64,000 bases of DNA from Candidatus Woesearchaeota archaeon (GCA_003650545.1 QMQO01000001.1:4845-68844), one strand, 5' to 3'. Shown: positions 37,285 to 47,191, numbered from the stretch's first letter. Made by a program: numbers and translations. The notes: generated from the sequence alone by a model not told the origin.

Positions 37285-39792
37285 TTACCTCTTTCTTTTC
37301 CATGTAAGTATTTTTTTGAAAAAGTTTAATATATGCTCTAAAAACGTTTCAGGCTGATAGACTTTACTGACCTTTATGATTTTCTGTTCCTTTGTTGGGG
37401 TTTTTATAACTTTAATTCTTAAAATATCAGTACTAGTATAAAAAGTTTTGTCTTCCTGCTTGTATTCTGCAATAGTGGGTGATAATGTTTTAATTCCCGG
37501 TGTGTCAAAACTAATATTGTAAACTATTGTGCGTTTTTCATAAGGAAGAAGTTTGGTGTAATATTCCTCCAACTCATCGTACACTTTGACATAGCTGGAT
37601 ATATTTTGTAGATTTTCTAACCTAAGAAAGACCTCTGCTTTTTCTCCAGTGAAAATTTCTTCTTGAATTAGTTCTTTGTCTATAACAATGCTTGGGACCA
37701 CATAGCTTGAATTATGAACTTTGATGTTAAGTGTACTTGAGTTAATCTCGTAATGTTCATTATCTACTTCATAGCTTAAAATAGTTCTTTTTAGTTTGTG
37801 TGTATCTTTTAACTTGGGTTTGATGTAGTGAACTTTTTCTATCGTGATGCTCTCTCCCGGATTTAAAGTGGCGATGTCATAATAGCGCGTGTTAACCAAA
37901 TCGAAATTTCTTTGTGTGGGAAAAATAAGTCTTATATTTTTGATTTGTACATCGTCGTTATTGGTGATTGTATATCTGAGAGGCAGGATTTCATTTTGGT
38001 ACACTATGTTATCTTCATCATCGAGAACACGCGAAAAAGAAATCTTGTGTTTTTTAATGTTGGTCACTGTTATTTTATTTACGATCGTTTCGTTGATTTG
38101 TTCATTGTTGTAAGTATAGCTGGTGGTGGTGTTGATGGTGTAGGTAGAATCTTTTTTAACTTTCGGTGCTTTTATCGTGTATGTGTATGCTGTAGTTTCT
38201 TGACCTGCAGCTAAACTGATTGTGTTGGCTGAGATCCCTGTAACTTTGAAAACCGTGGGGATATTTTCTATGACTTTTATCCTTAACAGATCGATTTTTC
38301 TGTTATTTTTAATTTTCACTTCAACTTCGCATTTATCATCTTCTAAGATATTTTTTGGCAATGTTTTGGTTATTTGTAATGGTTTTGGTGGATTAATATA
38401 GATATTCATCTTATGTTCTTTTTCAAGATTGTCGCCAAATTCTGTTGTATAATTTATCTTTACATTAAATTTATATTTCGTTCTTTTTTCAACTATTTTA
38501 TTAAGGTGGATCTTCCATACAAGTCTGCGATTTGTTGCATTAAGTCTATCAAGAATAATACCTGCAATATCCTTTAATTCGGTTTCTATACTAGCATTAA
38601 GAAAAGTATAGTCTATATACGGGTTTGGGTTCTGGATAAATACCAATATGGTATAATCTTCGCCGGATTCAAACTCTTCACCATTTTCTATGTTAGAAGT
38701 TACAATTGGATCCTTTATGACTAACTTGAGGCTTGTTTTTTCTGAAAGTATATTCGTTATTTTCTCATCGCTATCTTCATCACGGAATGTTATATCATAG
38801 TAGATATCTAAGTTATACAATCTTTTACCAATTATCTTGAATTCATAGGTTTTTGTGCTGCCTGAAGAGATTCTTGAACCCTCGCTTGGTAATTTAAGGT
38901 ATTTTCTAATCCCTCTTGTTATGTGCGTATCTTTTGGTATTATTTCGCCATTATCCGAGGTATAAATTGAGAATTTATCAATGCGGATATCATGGTTGGG
39001 GTGTTTGTTTTCTACAGTTATTTTCAGTATAATGTTCTCGTCATTTAGTCTTGCAGAAGAAACCTCTTCGAGAGTGTTGTCGATCTCGCTTTGTCTGTAA
39101 AACTTTGAACTGATTGATATAGCTGGCTCTGTTTTAAGGCTGAGCTTTCCGAGGTAGTCTTCAATTTCTTCAATACCATTAAAGTAATTTACTTGGGATG
39201 AAAAACTTTGAGTAAACTTTTCTGTTGGAGTTATTTTATAAGTTAGCTCATGTTCACTATCTCCGTTTAGGTTACCTTCCCAGACAACATTGTTATTGAT
39301 AATAGAACAGCCAGAGCATTCTTCTAAGATGATGTGCTTAGGGAATCTGTCTTTATAATTTATAATTGTGCCATAATCTCCAGTGTTTTTTACAGTGGAT
39401 GTTACTGTGTAGGTTTCTCCAGTGTAAAGTGTGGTTGAACTTATAGATCTTGATACGGTTATAATTGCTTTGATTGAATACACTTTGATTCTTGCCTTGT
39501 ACTCTTCTCTATCATAGTCAAATGTACTTTCTATATAGCAGATTTCTGTCACATTTGTTTGATCGCAACTTCCTTTTTTGATAAAAAGTGGCATCCCAGC
39601 CGTTCGAACTAGAATTTCACTTCTGTCTTTAGAGAATGTAATGATAAAGTTTTCGTTGTTAACTGTAAGGCTATCACCGGAGAAAAGATACCTGTCGTAG
39701 ATAAGACTTTTCGCACTTGCGGTTGTTGTAAGAACAAGTAAGATTATAATAAAGAGAAAAAAATTATTCTTCATCTTACTCGACAATACCAA
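37285..39792 (-). CDS. large secreted beta-sandwich repeat protein (DUF11/CARDB-like by pattern)
   Basis: The signal peptide ends ...LLVLTTTASA/KS. The 835-aa product has recurring roughly 100-aa beta-rich modules, such as GETYTVTSTVKNTGDYG and EVKIKNNRKIDL. Confidence 0.6.
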   Translation of the reverse strand: MVLSSKMKNNFFLFIIILLVLTTTASAKSLIYDRYLFSGDSLTVNNENFIITFSKDRSEILVRTAGMPLFIKKGSCDQTNVTEICYIESTFDYDREEYKARIKVYSIKAIITVSRSISSTTLYTGETYTVTSTVKNTGDYGTIINYKDRFPKHIILEECSGCSIINNNVVWEGNLNGDSEHELTYKITPTEKFTQSFSSQVNYFNGIEEIEDYLGKLSLKTEPAISISSKFYRQSEIDNTLEEVSSARLNDENIILKITVENKHPNHDIRIDKFSIYTSDNGEIIPKDTHITRGIRKYLKLPSEGSRISSGSTKTYEFKIIGKRLYNLDIYYDITFRDEDSDEKITNILSEKTSLKLVIKDPIVTSNIENGEEFESGEDYTILVFIQNPNPYIDYTFLNASIETELKDIAGIILDRLNATNRRLVWKIHLNKIVEKRTKYKFNVKINYTTEFGDNLEKEHKMNIYINPPKPLQITKTLPKNILEDDKCEVEVKIKNNRKIDLLRIKVIENIPTVFKVTGISANTISLAAGQETTAYTYTIKAPKVKKDSTYTINTTTSYTYNNEQINETIVNKITVTNIKKHKISFSRVLDDEDNIVYQNEILPLRYTITNNDDVQIKNIRLIFPTQRNFDLVNTRYYDIATLNPGESITIEKVHYIKPKLKDTHKLKRTILSYEVDNEHYEINSSTLNIKVHNSSYVVPSIVIDKELIQEEIFTGEKAEVFLRLENLQNISSYVKVYDELEEYYTKLLPYEKRTIVYNISFDTPGIKTLSPTIAEYKQEDKTFYTSTDILRIKVIKTPTKEQKIIKVSKVYQPETFLEHILNFFKKILTWKRKR

Positions 39793-40426
39793 CCACTTTA
39801 TTAAGAAGTGAGTTTGGTGTGTACTTCGCTATTTTGAATAATGGGGTTTCAGGGTAAACCCTGATGTCTTTACTCTTGACACCTTTTATTAAGTAGAGCT
39901 GTCCTTCTTCTTCCATTTTTTTGCTGAATAACCCTGCAAAGATTCTTGTTTTCATGTCTGTAGGGGTGGTTTCTGAGTAAAGTATTTCTCTTATATTTTC
40001 TTGTTCTAAGGTTTGACCCTGAAAATTGATACTCTGCTCTTTTATCAGTGGCTGCAGTTTGAATATGAATGCTTTATAATTGTGACCTAGGATTGCTTCG
40101 TAATCTCTGTTTGCAAGATGGGTACTCATAATCTCAAGATCTTCTACTGTTAGGGTTTCTATTGTTTCAGGATCTTCAAAACTAACAATGCGTAACCCTG
40201 CAAGTGCTCTGTCTTTTTCTTGAAGTAAGAATAGCTTTGGTTGTGTGTTGAAGTTTTTTTGTATATCCATATAGTCAGTATAACCAAAGTATAGACCTAT
40301 CCCCGTGAGGATCACTAGCAAGAGAATTGCAAAGGCTACTATCTTCACAATTGATTTTCCGAATTTAATAATAAGAATTATACCAACAATAAGTGTTAGA
40401 ATTTCCACCATTGTTAGTAGCGCCAT
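39776..40426 (-). CDS. N-terminally anchored membrane protein, function unknown
   Basis: Two N-terminal TM helices. It overlaps the downstream large gene by 17 nt, consistent with an operon with 37285..39792, 36879..37274 and lspA. Confidence 0.5.
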   Translation of the reverse strand: MALLTMVEILTLIVGIILIIKFGKSIVKIVAFAILLLVILTGIGLYFGYTDYMDIQKNFNTQPKLFLLQEKDRALAGLRIVSFEDPETIETLTVEDLEIMSTHLANRDYEAILGHNYKAFIFKLQPLIKEQSINFQGQTLEQENIREILYSETTPTDMKTRIFAGLFSKKMEEEGQLYLIKGVKSKDIRVYPETPLFKIAKYTPNSLLNKVVGIVE

Positions 40427-40534: not shown

Positions 40535-40894
40535 TTGGTTTTTGAGATAGAAGAAACTGCAAAAATGGTTGGGAGAGTTAAAAAACATAAACTTACATAT
40601 TACAACAGGTATAAAATTTGTGATGAGGATATTTCTCTAATTGTAACTAATGCTTACGGGAATAGAGAAGAAATATTAATACCGCGTGATGTACAAGTTA
40701 TTGCTGTTGATACATCAGATATTATACGTAAGAATGTTTTTTCACTTATATATTTAAAAAAAATAAGGGGAGCGTTTGTCGAAATAAATAAACACGAATT
40801 CAATAGTCTGTTATATGAAGTTCTGACGAATAAACTTGCTAATTACACCAAAGTAAATCTTGTTATGAGAGAAAACAAATTTTATTATGAATAA
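40535..40894 (+). CDS. hypothetical protein (start uncertain: TTG at 40535 or ATG at 40565)
   Basis: ORF only; no recognisable motif. Confidence 0.35.
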   Translation: MVFEIEETAKMVGRVKKHKLTYYNRYKICDEDISLIVTNAYGNREEILIPRDVQVIAVDTSDIIRKNVFSLIYLKKIRGAFVEINKHEFNSLLYEVLTNKLANYTKVNLVMRENKFYYE

Positions 40895-41607
40895 CTCTCT
40901 TTATAATTCTGCTTAATATCTGCATAATATTTGCAGTTCTTTCTCAGAATGCACTCTTTACATAATGGCTTTTTGTGGCAGTACATTTTGGCGTGCTTTA
41001 CTATCAACGCATGATATTCTTTGTAAACTTTAAGGTTTTTCCTTAAATGTTTGTGGAAGAATTGCTGAACTTCATCGTAGTTGTTGTTTTCGTTTATCAG
41101 ACCAAGCCTAGAGAAAATACGTTTTGTGTATGCATCCACAACAAAGATCGGTTTTTCAAATGCATATAATACGATGCTGTCTGCTGTCTCAGGGCCGATA
41201 CCCTTAATTTTTAGCAGGATGTTCCTTAAGTCGTTAGTTGAGAGTTGTAATAAATTATAGAATTTTGTATGGTAAAGAAACTTTGCTATGATTTTTAGCT
41301 TGATTGCTTTTTGATTATAATAACCCGAGCTACGTATAATTTTAGCAAGTGTTTTCTCGGGAATGGCGAGGATGTTTTTAGGATCCATAAGTTTGTTTTT
41401 GTTGAGCAATGTTATTGTTTTCTCAACGTTTTTCCATGTTGTGTTTTGGGTTAGAATTGCGCCTACGATTATCTCAAAGACATCCCTATTACTTTTAGGA
41501 GGACCGTTATGGTGTTTGCTGTAGAGAGAATTCTTTGATAAAGGCCACCAGCCTTGAGGACCGTATGTTTTATGCAAGGTTTTGTAGATTGTTTGGATTT
41601 TGTTCAT
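40885..41607 (-). CDS. endonuclease III-like HhH-GPD DNA glycosylase family protein
   Basis: ILTQNTTWKNVEKTI, IKGIGPETADSIVLYA, VVDAYTKRIFSRLG and the C-terminal Cys cluster CHKKPLCKECILRKNC. Confidence 0.8.
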   Translation of the reverse strand: MNKIQTIYKTLHKTYGPQGWWPLSKNSLYSKHHNGPPKSNRDVFEIIVGAILTQNTTWKNVEKTITLLNKNKLMDPKNILAIPEKTLAKIIRSSGYYNQKAIKLKIIAKFLYHTKFYNLLQLSTNDLRNILLKIKGIGPETADSIVLYAFEKPIFVVDAYTKRIFSRLGLINENNNYDEVQQFFHKHLRKNLKVYKEYHALIVKHAKMYCHKKPLCKECILRKNCKYYADIKQNYKESYS

Positions 41608-41647: not shown

Positions 41648-42739
41648 TTATCTTAATTTTATAACTAGACCTTCCTCAGTTACTTCCACAGATGTGCCAA
41701 GTTCATCTGAAAGTTGAATCATCCTTTTTTCAATATCTTCTTTTTCAGATCCTTTTGCTTTCCTTGTCTGAAATGTTGTTATTATCGGGATTAGCACAAT
41801 TTCTCGTGGATATCTAACCTTGAAAATAAAAGACCAATCGTTTCTTAATACAGGATCAACTGCATAGTCGTCTATAAAATCTCCTGTATCATACAGTATG
41901 GGTCTGTTATTATAAATTTCTATACCTTGAAAAACGTGAGAAGAATGCCCGTGAAAGATGTCTGCACCAGTATCTATGACAGACCTTGCAAAATCTTGGA
42001 ATTCTCTGCTAGGCCTTAGCTTCATGTTAGGTCCCCAATGTGCCGAGACAATCAATATATCGACTTTACTTCTAACATTAGAAATCTGTTGTTTAATCTC
42101 TTCTAGGCCTGCATCATTTATACGGATATAATTTGTGCCAGGTTTTCCATTAGCTTTCCAGCCGGGTTCATTATCTGTTATAGAGATTATACCTATTCTT
42201 TTTCCCCTTACTTCTAATATCGCTGGCTTTTTTGCTTGCTCTAGTGTTTTGCCTGCACCAGCATGTTTTATACCTGCGTCATCTAAAACCTTGATTGTCT
42301 CTGTTAGACCAGAGTACCTATAATCTAAAATATGGTTGTTGGCAAGTGATGCATAATCAATTAAGGCCATTTTCAACGCTTGCACATTTTCTGGATTTGA
42401 TTTATAGTTGAACACTTTTGGAGTCCACTTTTCTTTTTGCGTTGTTAGTGTTGTTTCGAGATTTATTATTCTCAGGTCTGCATTTTCCAATTCACTTAGT
42501 ATATCTCCCCAGATCCAGATGTAGCCCTTCTCGGCTATGACATCGTTCATTAATCTACCAATCATAACATCCCCCGTAAAGACAATGCTAATAGTTTCAT
42601 TTGGATGTTGTTCTTTTTCTTGAGGTTTTTTACCTTCTTTTATTTTTTCTGATGGAATATATGAAACGCAAGCTGTTAGAAGCATCATAAATACTATGAT
42701 ACATACAATGATCCCTATAAATAGATATTTTTCCATCAT
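41648..42739 (-). CDS. CapA/PgsA-family metallophosphatase-fold protein with bacterial-type lipobox
   Basis: FTGDVMIGR, NLETTLT, SLANNHILDY, VSAHWGPN and GHSSHV match the CapA family. The signal peptide ends MMLLTAC, a lipobox L-T-A-C. Confidence 0.8.
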   Translation of the reverse strand: MMEKYLFIGIIVCIIVFMMLLTACVSYIPSEKIKEGKKPQEKEQHPNETISIVFTGDVMIGRLMNDVIAEKGYIWIWGDILSELENADLRIINLETTLTTQKEKWTPKVFNYKSNPENVQALKMALIDYASLANNHILDYRYSGLTETIKVLDDAGIKHAGAGKTLEQAKKPAILEVRGKRIGIISITDNEPGWKANGKPGTNYIRINDAGLEEIKQQISNVRSKVDILIVSAHWGPNMKLRPSREFQDFARSVIDTGADIFHGHSSHVFQGIEIYNNRPILYDTGDFIDDYAVDPVLRNDWSFIFKVRYPREIVLIPIITTFQTRKAKGSEKEDIEKRMIQLSDELGTSVEVTEEGLVIKLR

Positions 42740-43697
42740 CTCCTTATCATGATCTCTTTAAGTACGTTTTCTTTGACAACAAAAAACCTGACGTCTGGTG
42801 TAATATCGTAAATGTATTGTTTGATAACACCATCGTCTGGCTTCTGTTTGAAAATCACATTTACTTTTAGTTTGTTTTTACCTGAACAAAATATTATAAC
42901 ATCACTAAACTTATTATAATTTAATATCTTTATTTGCTCATATCTGCCTTCAGGAATTATTCCAAAATTCCATTGCCGTTTGAATGTGAATAGCCCTGCA
43001 CTCAAGTGGTGACCAAAAAGATTTGTGTCTGAACCACTGGTCAATATTTCATATCCTTTTTCTTTCCCGTATTTTATAAAGTTATACACGAGAAAATCGC
43101 TTAATCCGTCTTTTTGAAACTCAGGCAGGGTTGCCTTATAGCTTGATGTCAATATTGTTTTTCCGTTTAATGTTCTTACATTTACGATCGACCTCCGATG
43201 AGTCTATTATCAAGAAATGCAAAAATACCGATGACTTTTTGATTATTTATGCGTTTAGTATTTAACCACCCCAATGATGCTAGTTTGAGTCCCTTCTCTT
43301 TTTGTGAAATGGAGTTGTAGTATAATGTAAGCCAATCTTTAAAGTTTTTGTCATCGAGATTTTCTATGAATTTAATTGTTATGCCTCTGACATTCAAATG
43401 TCTTATTCTTTTTCTTTTTTCTTTTTTTAAAGATTCTAGGTAATTTTCAGGAATAGTTTTTGTGTAGAGAATGTTTCTTATTTTTTTTGGTTTTAAAAAA
43501 TAATTATCTAAACCTTTAAAATAATTTTTAATTATTATTACATCTGAATTTTTATTTTTAGCAATCTTTTCTATTTTTATTATATCATTTTCATCATTTA
43601 AATTATTGACAACAAAGTAGCGTAGATTGAAGAATTCCTGGATTTCAGCCATCAGATCATCGATCTTGAATTTTTCAACAGTTGTTCCGTCTCTCAT
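42736..43697 (-). pseudogene. GNAT/Fem-like acyltransferase-fold gene split by a frameshift (ORFs 43182..43697 and 42736..43152)
   Basis: The upstream ORF ends ...AFLDNRLIGGRS then TAA. The downstream frame is already open across the junction (HRRSIVNVRTLNGKTILTSSYKATLPEF...). A 1-nt shift therefore gives one continuous roughly 320-aa product. The downstream ORF otherwise needs a TTG start. Confidence 0.55.
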
Positions 43698-43831
43698 ATC
43701 ATATTAAAATGCTTAGTTTTATTTAAACTTTATTCTACATATCTACACGTCTCTACATCTGTCTCTCTATATTTCTATCTATATCTTTCATTATAATAAT
43801 CTATTTAAAATATTTTCAACATTGATTTTAC

Positions 43832-46800
43832 ATGGGGGCGTTGGAAGATTGCTTCATTGCAAATGAAGTTAGAGTAGATTCTACAAGAAATTACAAACTC
43901 CATGTTTCTTTTCAGGGTTTGGGAGAGGTATATTGTGATTGGAAACACACATTTCCAACGACATTTATCTATGATAAAAAACACCTAGACGAGTTAATAG
44001 ATGCAATTGAAAAAAGTCCCTTAAAAGATTTTAAATTCAGAGTGATAAAAAGAGCTTATCCTGTTGTGCAGCTGGATGCACCAATCCCTCTTGTTTTAGA
44101 TTTTATAGAGAAGAGAATGTCAAAAATTTTTCTAGAGGATATATTTAAAAAATATTCTGAGAAAACTCCCTATTTAATGTGGGTACAAGAAGCAAGAGAT
44201 GCTGCTGCACAAGGTGAGAATCCATTCCAACCTCTTTGGAAGAATATGGTTGCTTTTGTTGAGTCCATTAACCCAGAAGCAAAAGGCCAGCTAAAAAACT
44301 TTAAGATGAATTTTAAAAATTATTTAGAAAAATATGTTCTTGGCAGAACCGATGTAGAAGGAGAATATTATTCGGATGAAAAAGTCAAATGGATGATTCG
44401 GTTCTGTAAATATGTAAAAGCAAGACAGAATCCCAACCATCGTATTTACTATCCTTTTAGTTATTTCTCGCTGGGTTATTATAACCAGCAGGCAAGGTGG
44501 AGAGTTGGAAATGCTGGCGGGTTGTTTAAACTTGATCCAAGGTTGATAGAATTATTGAGAGAACGTAAGAATATCCAAGATAATGTTTTGGCTCTTGAAG
44601 ATAGGATAGACGCCATTTTCAGTTCAGAATCAGGAGCAACAAGGATGAAGAATGAGCTAGTGTCTGCGTTTAAAATGTATAATGGAAGAAACCTTGATAA
44701 GATTCTTACAGGCATTTCTAAAACAACACGTAAAAAAAGAATATTCGCAATTGAATGGTTGAGGAACATCATGGATGAAATTTCTGATCTAGAAAATCGA
44801 ATGGAGAACATGGGACATGTTGAGTTGAGATGTTATTGTGATACAAAAAACAAACGTCTTGGTACAAGGTTATTCAATGTTGAGATCCATCTAGATTCAA
44901 CTGATAGTTTTTTATACCAAAGAATGCTTAATGCAGATGAGATTAGACGACAGATTTGGATATTTTTTGATTTTGAGAAGCCACTATTTGGTGAAGATGA
45001 AGAAAAGTTATCTTATGGAGGTTTTCTCATACTTGCTAATGATAAACCCGTGATGTCTAATATATATACTATCCACAAAACAGGTATTAAAAGTATGAAA
45101 GGATTTGTGGTGAAGCAAAATTTTGGTACTGTTAGAAAAATGTTAGATGCGATAATTGATGATATTAATAAGATTAAAGCAAGATATCCTGAAAAACTAA
45201 TTATCTATGCTCCTTTTAATGCAAAGTTTGATCTGCTCGAAACTCGTGAACAAGAAGGTGGTTTTTTGGTTGGTGCAAGAAAATCAGATCCTATAAAAGA
45301 AGTTTCTCGTGAATTCGGGATTAGAATTGGCGTAAGACAAGCGCAAGTTTATGATTTTTTTTGGCAAGCACAGCTTGATGCGAAACATTTGCCAAGAAAA
45401 AAACTCGATGTGTACGAACTTTTTTGTATGGGCGATGAAGCTGTAGGAAAATCTCTTAGCTATGACGAAATGCGCGAACTAGAATGGATTGCTATAAGTA
45501 ACTGCTTTGATCCTGATGTGGTAAGTTATAATGTAAGTGAACACCTTTCTAAACAAACAGGATTGCCCATTGTTGATCTGGAGATGGTGCGTGATATAGG
45601 TAAGTATGCTGCACAGTGTATCGTCAGTTATCTAATTGACGATGTTGTAGCTCTTAATCGGATATTTGATTCTGAGCGTGGAAGAAAATGTCTTAGGATA
45701 AAAGCGCATATTTCGGAGGAATATGGCATAGAACTCACAAAGACTGCGTATTATCCTTCTCCTATAAATGATGCGCAGGAAAAACTTTACTTTGAAAAAG
45801 TTGGAACGTTCAGAAAGGTTGTTTATCCAGAGAATAAGTTTTCACGCGAATTGGCTGAAAAATCAAAAACCTTCTTTAGCAGATATAGGCGCGGTTTGAT
45901 AAAGCACGATAATGTTGAAGGTGTATTTCATAATGTCCACCAAGTTTATTTGCCTTGGCCAGAGTTCCTTGCAGACCTAATCGCGATAAGATTTTCAGAG
46001 AATGGCACTCTCGAAAGTTCAAAGTTAAGAAGAACATTAGAGCTAGCAGCAGAATTAGATGATCCCTACTCAAAACATCATCTAAGCCAATACATTAGAG
46101 CGCTTGCTGGTTTCATCATAAAGGATTATGGCGACTATCAACTTGAAAGAAATAAGCTAACGAGACTGTTGAAAAAAAGTGGATTGGCAGGAAATTTCTC
46201 TAGTGTTAGAGATGTTGTTGTGATGTTAATGAATACTCTTGATTCAGTCGATAGGTTTAGGTTAAGAAATGGCTATCTATCCGCAAGAAAGATACTTAAT
46301 TTTAGACAGTCTACCCTTTTTAAGCTTACTGAGATAGTGAAAGGGTTTGGTATGCAACAAGACGATCCGTTTGATGCCGATAAAACTCTGGTTGATGTTA
46401 TAAACACTTGTGCTAAATACTATCATAAAAAAAGAAAATTCAAGGGTCAGTTTAATTTTGAACCAAGGTTTGTTAGAGAGATATTAGGTGATAGGGATAA
46501 AGGTGTTGGCTTATTCTTAGATGTAGCAAATAAATTAAAGAATGCTGGCTTTAGCATCCTTAAAAACAATGGAGATTTTCTTTATGTGATTGGTGATGCG
46601 AGAAAGTTACCAGAACCAACTGTGCATCTACAAACGATAAATAGTGTTCTTAAGGTCAAAGACAGGTTATATTATAAAGTTGCAGGTCAATTTGCAGGAA
46701 TTAAAATAAGAGAGAAGCCATCTAATCAACTTTGCGTATATGAGTCAAGAGTGTATGCAGAGTTCCTAGACAGAATTCTTTCAGGAAATGTAGAAGATGC

Positions 46801-47191
46801 AGCAGAGTTTGCATATAGGGCTATTATGAATGTTATCAATGCAGATAACATTGATCTGGTTTGGTATGTGAAGAGTCGAGATATTTATAATGCTTATGAT
46901 GTCTATGATGGCTGTGTCTTTTTTTATGATCCCTATAGGCAACCGGATAAAGTTGAGTATGTTGAAAAAGAATTTGGTAGTATGGGTTACAAAGTTCTTA
47001 GGCGGATAGAGGATCTAAATCTAGATATGCGTAAATATCGTGAAAGGTTGAGGGTCCAGTTTGACTTTTTTCTGAGTCCCTTTATGAACCCTGCACAAAG
47101 ACTTAAGTTATTAAGGACTGGTAAGGTTCCAGATGGTGTCACAGAAAAAAGGCCGTATAATCTAACCTTAGATTTTGATGCTTTAGATTAA
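43832..47191 (+). CDS. family B DNA polymerase-like protein: DEDDy exonuclease motifs present, polymerase motifs A and C degenerate
   Basis: Exo I is FFDFE (around aa 380), Exo II is FNAKFDL (around aa 463-467), and Exo III is SYLIDD (around aa 600-604). The motif A position reads VYLPWPEFLADLI instead of DxxSLYPSII. The motif C position reads LYVIGDAR instead of YGDTDS. The downstream KDRLYYKV...ESRVYAEF..VEDAAEF layout parallels the KKRYA...RRDW...eeA region of PolB. Confidence 0.55.
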   Translation: MGALEDCFIANEVRVDSTRNYKLHVSFQGLGEVYCDWKHTFPTTFIYDKKHLDELIDAIEKSPLKDFKFRVIKRAYPVVQLDAPIPLVLDFIEKRMSKIFLEDIFKKYSEKTPYLMWVQEARDAAAQGENPFQPLWKNMVAFVESINPEAKGQLKNFKMNFKNYLEKYVLGRTDVEGEYYSDEKVKWMIRFCKYVKARQNPNHRIYYPFSYFSLGYYNQQARWRVGNAGGLFKLDPRLIELLRERKNIQDNVLALEDRIDAIFSSESGATRMKNELVSAFKMYNGRNLDKILTGISKTTRKKRIFAIEWLRNIMDEISDLENRMENMGHVELRCYCDTKNKRLGTRLFNVEIHLDSTDSFLYQRMLNADEIRRQIWIFFDFEKPLFGEDEEKLSYGGFLILANDKPVMSNIYTIHKTGIKSMKGFVVKQNFGTVRKMLDAIIDDINKIKARYPEKLIIYAPFNAKFDLLETREQEGGFLVGARKSDPIKEVSREFGIRIGVRQAQVYDFFWQAQLDAKHLPRKKLDVYELFCMGDEAVGKSLSYDEMRELEWIAISNCFDPDVVSYNVSEHLSKQTGLPIVDLEMVRDIGKYAAQCIVSYLIDDVVALNRIFDSERGRKCLRIKAHISEEYGIELTKTAYYPSPINDAQEKLYFEKVGTFRKVVYPENKFSRELAEKSKTFFSRYRRGLIKHDNVEGVFHNVHQVYLPWPEFLADLIAIRFSENGTLESSKLRRTLELAAELDDPYSKHHLSQYIRALAGFIIKDYGDYQLERNKLTRLLKKSGLAGNFSSVRDVVVMLMNTLDSVDRFRLRNGYLSARKILNFRQSTLFKLTEIVKGFGMQQDDPFDADKTLVDVINTCAKYYHKKRKFKGQFNFEPRFVREILGDRDKGVGLFLDVANKLKNAGFSILKNNGDFLYVIGDARKLPEPTVHLQTINSVLKVKDRLYYKVAGQFAGIKIREKPSNQLCVYESRVYAEFLDRILSGNVEDAAEFAYRAIMNVINADNIDLVWYVKSRDIYNAYDVYDGCVFFYDPYRQPDKVEYVEKEFGSMGYKVLRRIEDLNLDMRKYRERLRVQFDFFLSPFMNPAQRLKLLRTGKVPDGVTEKRPYNLTLDFDALD

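Follow-up and report, generated by a model that had tools for sequence, protein, structure and literature searches.

We analysed a 64,000-nucleotide stretch of DNA (the window; GCA_003650545.1, QMQO01000001.1:4845-68844) from a Candidatus Woesearchaeota archaeon (DPANN), whose assembly comprises 1.64 Mb in 133 contigs. One long gene of the window encodes a homolog of family-B DNA polymerases (PolBs), which we call P0001. It belongs to a divergent protein family in which the 3'-5' exonuclease centre is, as judged from residue conservation, under strict selection, whereas the polymerase centre has, by alignment, lost both metal-binding aspartates and motif B, which binds the deoxynucleoside triphosphate (dNTP). 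Together with the predicted fold, these patterns make it fairly probable that P0001 is a polymerase-dead exonuclease, which trims or proofreads 3' ends in trans and is probably tethered to PCNA.

P0001 is a family-B polymerase homolog over its whole length

As a single query, P0001 gave no match in Pfam, NCBIfam, PHROGs or, with phmmer, the PDB. The single Pfam signal was a sub-threshold one for DUF6176; the PolB models PF00136 (DNA_pol_B) and PF03104 (DNA_pol_B_exo1) did not match P0001 even at E ≤ 10, and neither did any Pfam RNase_H-like or DnaQ model. We built a family profile from 59 full-length, divergent members, to which all column counts below refer. They are 19-28% identical to P0001, and the mean column identity is about 17%. 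Against the PDB this profile matched archaeal PolBs (D. Tok, Tgo, KOD, 9 degN, Pfu and P. abyssi) with E-values down to 3.4e-10, the alignments falling in the region of Exo II and the GRxxxD strand and in the thumb, and in dozens of genomes it also cross-matched canonical PolB genes, in their Exo II region. When the family was aligned with hhalign to 28 canonical PolBs of the same order, the probability was 99.6% (E = 7e-24) over 745 columns, and it was weak (22%) against one lone canonical PolB. Taken separately, the order's two groups of canonical PolBs received similar hhalign support, 95% and 97.7%.

The AlphaFold2 model of P0001, calculated with the family alignment, has a mean predicted local distance difference test score (pLDDT) of 85.3 and a predicted template modelling score of 0.85. 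In a Foldseek search of the PDB the best 50 matches were all family-B polymerases, aligned over about 800 columns with E-values down to 3e-12. The best of these (E = 3e-12) were structures of P. abyssi PolB in the editing mode, with template modelling scores of 0.48-0.51 normalised by target length; KOD and Tgo PolB were also found over about 800 columns, at about 11-13% identity. In both the Foldseek and the hhalign alignments the N-terminal, exonuclease, palm, fingers and thumb domains follow each other in PolB order, so that P0001 is a PolB homolog from end to end. The first-pass annotation, made by reading the sequence, had proposed a PolB-like palm and thumb layout, which these alignments bear out; it had also allowed that the homology might not extend beyond a generic DnaQ-like exonuclease domain, which does not hold, since the whole PolB architecture was matched.

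The N-terminus of P0001 is collinear with those of the other family members. The insertion of roughly 250 residues that had been noticed ahead of Exo I is, in the AlphaFold model, a helical module (about residues 85-325) between the N-terminal beta domain and the exonuclease domain, to which it is connected by three strands. The family consensus of this insertion of about 240 residues includes F212 and Y217, within FxxGxYTxxARW, and a TRxxNxL motif. Modelled alone, the N-terminal 372 residues had no significant fold match in the PDB (none at E < 0.09). Judged by motif spacing, the fingers of P0001 are about 80 residues longer than those of canonical PolBs, and in the thumb the hhalign column confidence is 8-9.

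The exonuclease centre is under strict selection

Exo I (FFDFE), Exo II (FNAKFDL) and Exo III (YLIDD), which the first-pass annotation had read in P0001, are all present as quoted, and their catalytic residues D380/E382, N463/D467 and Y600/D604 are invariant or nearly so across the family. D380, E382, D508, Y600 and D604 are the sole invariant columns of the alignment. D508 lies in a strand that pairs with 'kGRihfDLy' of D. Tok and 9 degN-type PolBs in the profile-PDB alignment. The motifs agree with those of PolB exonucleases (DxE in Exo I, Nx2-3[FY]D in Exo II and Yx3D in Exo III), and the four acids and the tyrosine of a DnaQ-like DEDDy site are found, at the level of sequence, in three motifs in the right order. 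Because the members share so little identity with P0001, the invariance of these residues is far beyond chance.

The distribution of conservation along the protein leads to the same centre. In the family, the columns conserved to at least 75% make up 13.5% of the exonuclease domain, 3.7% of the palm and fingers and 6.8% of the thumb, whereas in canonical PolBs of the same order they make up 15% of the exonuclease domain and 24% of the palm and fingers. The conservation peak of the family is thus its exonuclease domain, the reverse of canonical PolBs, and the nuclease appears about as constrained as in a working polymerase, with the synthesis centre relaxed.

The same residues bear on the possibility that P0001 has no catalytic role and serves as a replisome scaffold, much as the C-terminal half of eukaryotic Pol epsilon does, so that its exonuclease residues would merely bind a metal or the end of a DNA strand. 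There are known cases of inactivated PolB modules with a structural role (PMC2669801, PMC2527604), the large family-specific helical insertion could be a docking surface, and many members carry a PIP-like tail (see below). We nevertheless consider a scaffold unlikely, since the known structural derivatives have degraded exonuclease motifs as well (PMC7544198, PMC2527604), whereas DEDDy residues that are kept in 59 such dissimilar sequences are a signature of catalysis and not of a scaffold.

The polymerase centre has degenerated

The peptide collinear with motif A, GVFHNVHQVYLPWPEFLADLI, was located in the first-pass annotation, which had found no Asp where DxxSLYPS is expected, and it lies at residues 697-717. 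By hhalign the PolB string 'PGlYxnIxvfDf' pairs with 'GlxxnVxkxyi' of the family, which puts Y706 on the position of the motif A aspartate and agrees with that reading. In the AlphaFold model a strand (697-706) is followed by a helix (709-721), which is exactly the motif A topology of PolBs. Column 706 holds Tyr in 29 members, Phe in 11, His in four, and also Val and Leu; its seven commonest residues, accounting for 53 of the 59 members, do not include Asp.

Motif C had likewise been called degenerate, and this stands, with a change of register: FLYVIGDAR (916-924), which had been taken as its equivalent, is present and forms the second strand of a hairpin, and on the same hairpin KNNGDF (911-916), which hhalign places on Y(G/S)DTDS, lies just upstream of it and overlaps it. 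The hairpin strands are 908-912 and 916-920 in the AlphaFold model. The two aspartate columns are populated by other residues, E23 Q16 N6 D3 at 913 and P14 N10 S8 D5 at 915, and the family consensus of the motif is H-Q-E/Q-G-x-Y. No conserved motif A or motif C aspartate that could have been misregistered by eye is therefore revealed by the profile or the structure.

The motif B signature Kx3NSxYG was not found in the fingers of P0001, as had been stated. The peptide AGFIIKDYGDY (758-768), which had been put forward as its equivalent, is present, but hhalign favours, with low confidence, a site near residues 868-876 (KFKGQFNF), and AGFIIKDYGDY corresponds to a conserved finger-helix motif of the family (ALAxWxxxDY). 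Local hhalign pairs 'kiYY' of the family with the 'KKKY' of PolBs, and here the global and local registers differ. The C-terminal half contains no invariant acid; the best conserved are E971 (53/59), D1065 (51/59) and D765 (49/59). P0001 thus lacks what would be expected of an active PolB, namely the motif A aspartate, motif B, the YxDTDS of motif C and a Pfam score above the gathering threshold.

P0001 co-exists with two PolBs and PolD

The same genome encodes a canonical, KOD-like PolB of 810 amino acids (E = 2e-161), in which every motif is present (DIET, FDLPY, YNLQD, DFRSLYPS, KTLLNSTYG, YGDTDS and KKKY, with a QSKLESFF tail). A second, divergent PolB of 751 amino acids (KOD E = 1e-24) is encoded on contig C31 (G000, about 4.4-6.1 kb; loci L002, L003 and L005); its exonuclease motifs and motifs A and B are intact, its motif C reads 'EVDTDG', and it ends in ..QLSYRKA, without a PIP-like tail. 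The DP2 subunit of PolD is also encoded. Scans of the genome with PF00136 and PF03104 returned the two canonical PolBs and one sub-threshold PF03104 match on contig C4. The co-existence of these three polymerases identifies P0001 as an accessory paralog.

Among the relatives, PolB was found in 25 of 25 genomes and PolD in 57 of 61, with or without the new family. Complementation, in which carriers of the family would lack PolD or PolB, was considered and ruled out, both being near-universal in the order. P0001 therefore does not act as replicase in a reduced genome, and it does not stand in for a lost proofreader. The search for further polymerases that the first-pass annotation had recommended does not support its own alternative, a very divergent but active replicase.

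Many family members carry a clamp-binding-like tail

Canonical PolBs of the order end in a PCNA-interacting peptide (PIP) box, QxxLxxFF or QKxLFxF. The pattern Qxx[LIMF]..[FL] occurs within the last 14 residues of 26 of the 59 family members, compared with 2.4% of control windows, and global hhalign superimposes the family tail on the PIP tail of the canonical PolBs. Such a tail would tether many members of the family to PCNA. In P0001 itself, residues 1105-1119 are disordered in the AlphaFold model (pLDDT < 50). Two members (P0038 and P0040) have the tail replaced by a CxC...CxH ending, which resembles a SWIM-type zinc finger.

Distribution and inheritance of the family

HMMER, run exhaustively against 1.84 billion cluster representatives, returned 109 relatives of P0001 at E ≤ 1e-3 and 50 at E ≤ 1e-30, with 22-33% identity (38% over one short fragment) and lengths mostly of 800-1250 residues. 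A word-indexed search of 5.8 billion proteins returned the query alone, both with the P0001 sequence and with the family alignment. With more than 100 sequence clusters that Pfam and NCBIfam do not recognise, the family is likely to go unnamed. One member (G136:C11:86421-88565) has an in-frame TAA inside the match, which may be due to pseudogenisation, recoding or an error in sequencing.

With the single sequence as query, the gene was found in 8 of 61 relative genomes, whereas, of the 251 genomes of the phylum that were sampled, about 30 gave strong full-length matches to the family profile. With few exceptions these belong to the same order, and the distribution is patchy. The named carriers, from a search for related loci with a sub-alignment of 10 sequences, are metagenome-assembled genomes (MAGs) of Candidatus Woesearchaeota, Nanoarchaeota or Nanoarchaeia, and two carrier bins labelled Methanosarcinales are probably mislabelled. 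In the closest genomes (G018, G008 and L058) the gene keeps its position beside those of ribosomal protein S8e and LSm; it is therefore chromosomal and vertically inherited. The family evolves fast: its members are 22-26% identical in genomes where the canonical PolBs share 45-50% identity.

Fast evolution and patchiness might also be expected of a replicase of viral or mobile-element origin that is decaying and is carried along by chance. This origin is extremely unlikely in our judgement: the frame of 1119 codons is intact and its model confident, the catalytic exonuclease residues are conserved across the 59 members, the synteny with the S8e and LSm genes is kept, and, besides the lack of a PHROG match, the viral PolB models of a viral structure library are no closer to P0001 than the cellular or archaeal ones.

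The gene and its genomic context

The features of the gene and protein are listed in Table 1. The TATA-like box of the upstream spacer marks a putative promoter, and the messenger RNA is probably leaderless. Downstream, the S8e gene is convergent, with its stop 15 nucleotides from the end of the P0001 gene. The surrounding genes of the window encode S8e, LSm, an S-layer protein, SRP54/FtsY, a PGA_cap protein and an HhH-GPD glycosylase.

Table 1 Features of the P0001 gene and its product (positions counted from the first nucleotide of the window; residues numbered in P0001)
Feature	Position	Strand	Remarks
Upstream spacer, A+T-rich, 134 nt	43698..43831	+	TATA-like 'tatttaaaata' about 25 nt before the ATG, by sequence reading
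Whole gene, PolB-derived protein P0001	43832..47191	+	Uninterrupted open reading frame of 1119 aa; stop TAA 47189-47191
N-terminal beta-rich domain, residues 1-84	43832..44083	+	AlphaFold strands 7-84, pLDDT > 90; family-conserved G31, H39
Family-specific helical insertion, residues 85-325	44084..44806	+	AlphaFold secondary structure and pLDDT; residues 167-209 disordered
3'-5' exonuclease domain, residues 373-615	44948..45676	+	Most conserved part of P0001
Exo I, D380-F-E382 (FFDFE)	44969..44977	+	D and E in 59/59
Exo II, N463-A-K-F-D467 (FNAKFDL)	45218..45232	+	N 57/59, D 58/59; aligned to PolB NxxFD
D508, Asp of the PolB-typical 'GRxxxD' strand after Exo II	45353..45355	+	59/59
Exo III, Y600-L-I-D-D604 (YLIDD)	45629..45643	+	Y and D in 59/59
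Degenerate motif A strand, G697..Y706..P708	45920..45955	+	Y706 in place of the catalytic Asp of DxxSLYPS
Degenerate motif C hairpin, K911-N-N-G-D-F916	46562..46579	+	Replaces YGDTDS; hhalign, high column confidence
KxY-like strand, R945-L-Y-Y948	46664..46675	+	Y948 in 52/59; register moderately certain
Thumb domain, residues 966-1100	46727..47131	+	Conserved E971, K1014, Y1019; profile matches PolB 'ETQARVLEAIL...'
Degenerate PIP-box-like tail, N1110-L-T-L-D-F1115	47159..47176	+	Tentative; Asn for Gln

Several further reading frames were noted. An antisense frame of 110 codons (44479..44811, minus strand) lies inside the P0001 gene; it was set aside as a gene, being most likely a chance frame in A+T-rich DNA. 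Two open reading frames of 171 and 138 codons (42736..43697, minus strand) are divergent from the gene and have no Pfam match. Proteins of 835 (37285..39792, minus strand) and 216 residues (39776..40426, minus strand), also without a Pfam match, have counterparts in genome G018 (26% and 23% identity), where they are encoded in the same order beside the PolB-like gene.

Across 16 loci of the family there is no recurrent neighbour besides S8e and no conserved operon partner. The flanks encode aIF5B, S19e, S8e, FtsY, prefoldin-like and aIF6-like proteins, dCMP deaminase, an M50 peptidase, PKD-domain proteins, one UvrD/RQC helicase and proteins of unassigned function (the names FtsY, prefoldin-like and aIF6-like were read from the sequences, not scored). 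The helicase, of UvrD type with an RQC domain, is convergent with the family gene in one Woesearchaeota MAG (L064:4470-6365, minus strand). In the window, the HhH-GPD glycosylase, which is EndoIII/Nth-like (40885..41607, minus strand), lies 2.2 kb from the PolB-like gene, and in two other genomes (L025 and L026) BLAST located homologs at distances of 2.2 and 4.8 kb from the gene of the family. This proximity is a weak hint, noticed post hoc, at 3'-end clean-up in base excision repair.

The helicase beside one family gene, and the glycosylase within 2-5 kb in three loci, would also suit a two-protein machine for DNA trimming or defence, of which P0001 would be one half and a Cas4/RecB-like nuclease the other. 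The flanking genes argue against it: Pfam scans identified translation and housekeeping genes and no PD-(D/E)xK protein, no Cas4/RecB-like neighbour was present in the window or in the other family loci among the 16, and the two Cas4/PDDEXK genes of the genome lie on other contigs, C2 and C13. With no recurrent partner either, we regard such a machine as very unlikely.

Discussion

The architecture of P0001 is that of the Thermococcales-type PolBs (KOD, Tgo, 9 degN, Pfu, P. abyssi and D. Tok; group B3 in the Makarova/Kazlauskas scheme), with which the family shares the five-part organisation and the fold, Exo I-III, the GRxxxD strand, the thumb segment and, in many members, the PIP-like tail. 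In contrast to these enzymes, motifs A, B and C of the family are without catalytic or dNTP-binding residues, the fingers are longer, the helical insertion is added and the identity is as low as about 11-13%.

The PolB2 group (Rogozin et al. 2008, PMC2527604) resembles the family in being a PolB paralog with degraded polymerase motifs that exists beside active polymerases. PolB2 proteins are described as missing Exo I and Exo III, keeping the distal motif C aspartate and carrying a D(K/R) motif (PMC2527604, PMC7544198). The first-pass annotation had stated that the exonuclease site is also disrupted in the known inactivated archaeal PolBs, and this agrees with the disruption of Exo I described there (PMC2527604). 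The family reverses the PolB2 pattern, the exonuclease being intact and both motif C positions unconserved, and it lacks the features by which a PolB2 protein would be recognised.

The interpretation of P0001 as an exonuclease without polymerase activity has to be weighed against several observations that do not favour it. PolB2, or Dpo2, had been predicted inactive but was subsequently found to polymerise, as an active extender in translesion synthesis (PMC8764526), which is a precedent for an 'inactivated' group turning out to be active (see also PMC7390963 and PMC7544198). P0001 itself has D915 at the distal motif C position, although Asp occurs there in few members, and the residual acids D765, the D934-equivalent and E971 remain. 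At well-conserved positions P0001 departs from the family consensus (W395Y, F496G, E497I and N522R). Its tail, ..PYNLTLDFDALD, is a degenerate PIP-like one with Asn in place of Gln; the binomial p of 2e-26 for the enrichment of such tails in the family is optimistic, the pattern having been set after the tails were inspected, although the enrichment is large. Finally, no operon partner points to a function.

The first two of these observations, together with the palm, fingers and thumb fold, which is kept with high model confidence, and the conserved KxY-like Y948 and thumb K1014 and Y1019, would also be expected if P0001 were still a DNA (or RNA) polymerase with a non-canonical active site, as in PolB2/Dpo2. 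However, PolB2 keeps the distal motif C aspartate and a conserved D(K/R) motif that compensates (PMC7544198), whereas in the family no acid is conserved at 706 (Y/F/H), 913 (E/Q/N) or 915 (P/N/S/D), motif B is absent and the palm and fingers are the least conserved region. A remaining polymerase activity is therefore improbable, and the residue and selection patterns fit a DEDDy 3'-5' exonuclease as the sole remaining chemistry, for which reason we read P0001 as a polymerase-dead trimming enzyme.

Other PolB folds have been exapted after the loss of polymerase catalysis, including the C-terminal half of eukaryotic Pol epsilon, the poxvirus F12 protein and the helicase-fused PolB remnants of Tlr1 and polinton-like viruses (PLV). 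In these the exonuclease has been inactivated or lost, unlike the complete DEDDy site of the family. The nearest functional analogy is a prokaryotic PolX, in which a dead polymerase is combined with an active PHP 3'-5' exonuclease (as cited in PMC12926913). The logic is the same, with selection stronger on the nuclease than on the synthesis site, but the polymerase belongs to family X instead of B, and the nuclease fold is PHP and not a DnaQ-like DEDDy one.

Stand-alone DnaQ-like exonucleases, such as the DnaQ epsilon subunit, share with the family the DEDD(y/h) chemistry, the lack of a polymerase activity of their own and a possible role as proofreaders in trans. COG3298/YprB is a further stand-alone exonuclease of the PolB-exo-like type. 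These proteins consist of the exonuclease domain alone, whereas the family keeps a palm-fingers-thumb body of about 500 residues.

For Woesearchaeota, groups B7 and B9 are given in a comprehensive survey of PolBs from 2020 (PMC7544198), and the portion of it used here names no exonuclease-only group; we found no description of an exonuclease-only PolB in the literature. As far as we could find, the dead PolBs that have been described have lost or degraded their exonuclease. In the family the reverse has happened: the proofreading centre was preserved by selection and the synthesis centre degenerated, with the whole polymerase body retained.

On this basis one mechanism seems the most likely. 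The thumb and the vestigial palm would hold the primer-template duplex and the exonuclease site would receive the 3' end, much as happens when a normal PolB is editing. Mismatched, damaged or blocked 3' ends would then be trimmed, with no extension possible. The C-terminal PIP-like tail would tether many members of the family to PCNA, and the protein would act in trans, beside the KOD-like PolB, the second PolB and PolD. That the family has exonuclease and no polymerase activity, that DNA is its substrate and that it binds PCNA in such a cellular role are predictions.

If P0001 is indeed an active, clamp-bound exonuclease, it would amount to a natural experiment in which a PolB edits without synthesising. 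It would also be a candidate for extrinsic proofreading or 3'-end cleaning in archaea whose genomes are very small and whose repair repertoires are thin, and it would offer structural work a ready-made 'editing-mode' PolB. A broader scenario, which we put forward tentatively as possible rather than probable, is that a sizeable branch of the Woesearchaeota turned a duplicated PolB into a dedicated, PCNA-tethered, 'editing-only' enzyme that proofreads or cleans 3' ends in trans, on the clamp beside PolB or PolD. Its substrates may include misincorporated nucleotides, or 3'-blocked ends produced by the HhH-GPD glycosylase/lyase encoded nearby. If true, this would be the first case in which a B-family polymerase was exapted into an exonuclease acting alone, with the dead polymerase body serving as a sensor of DNA junctions.

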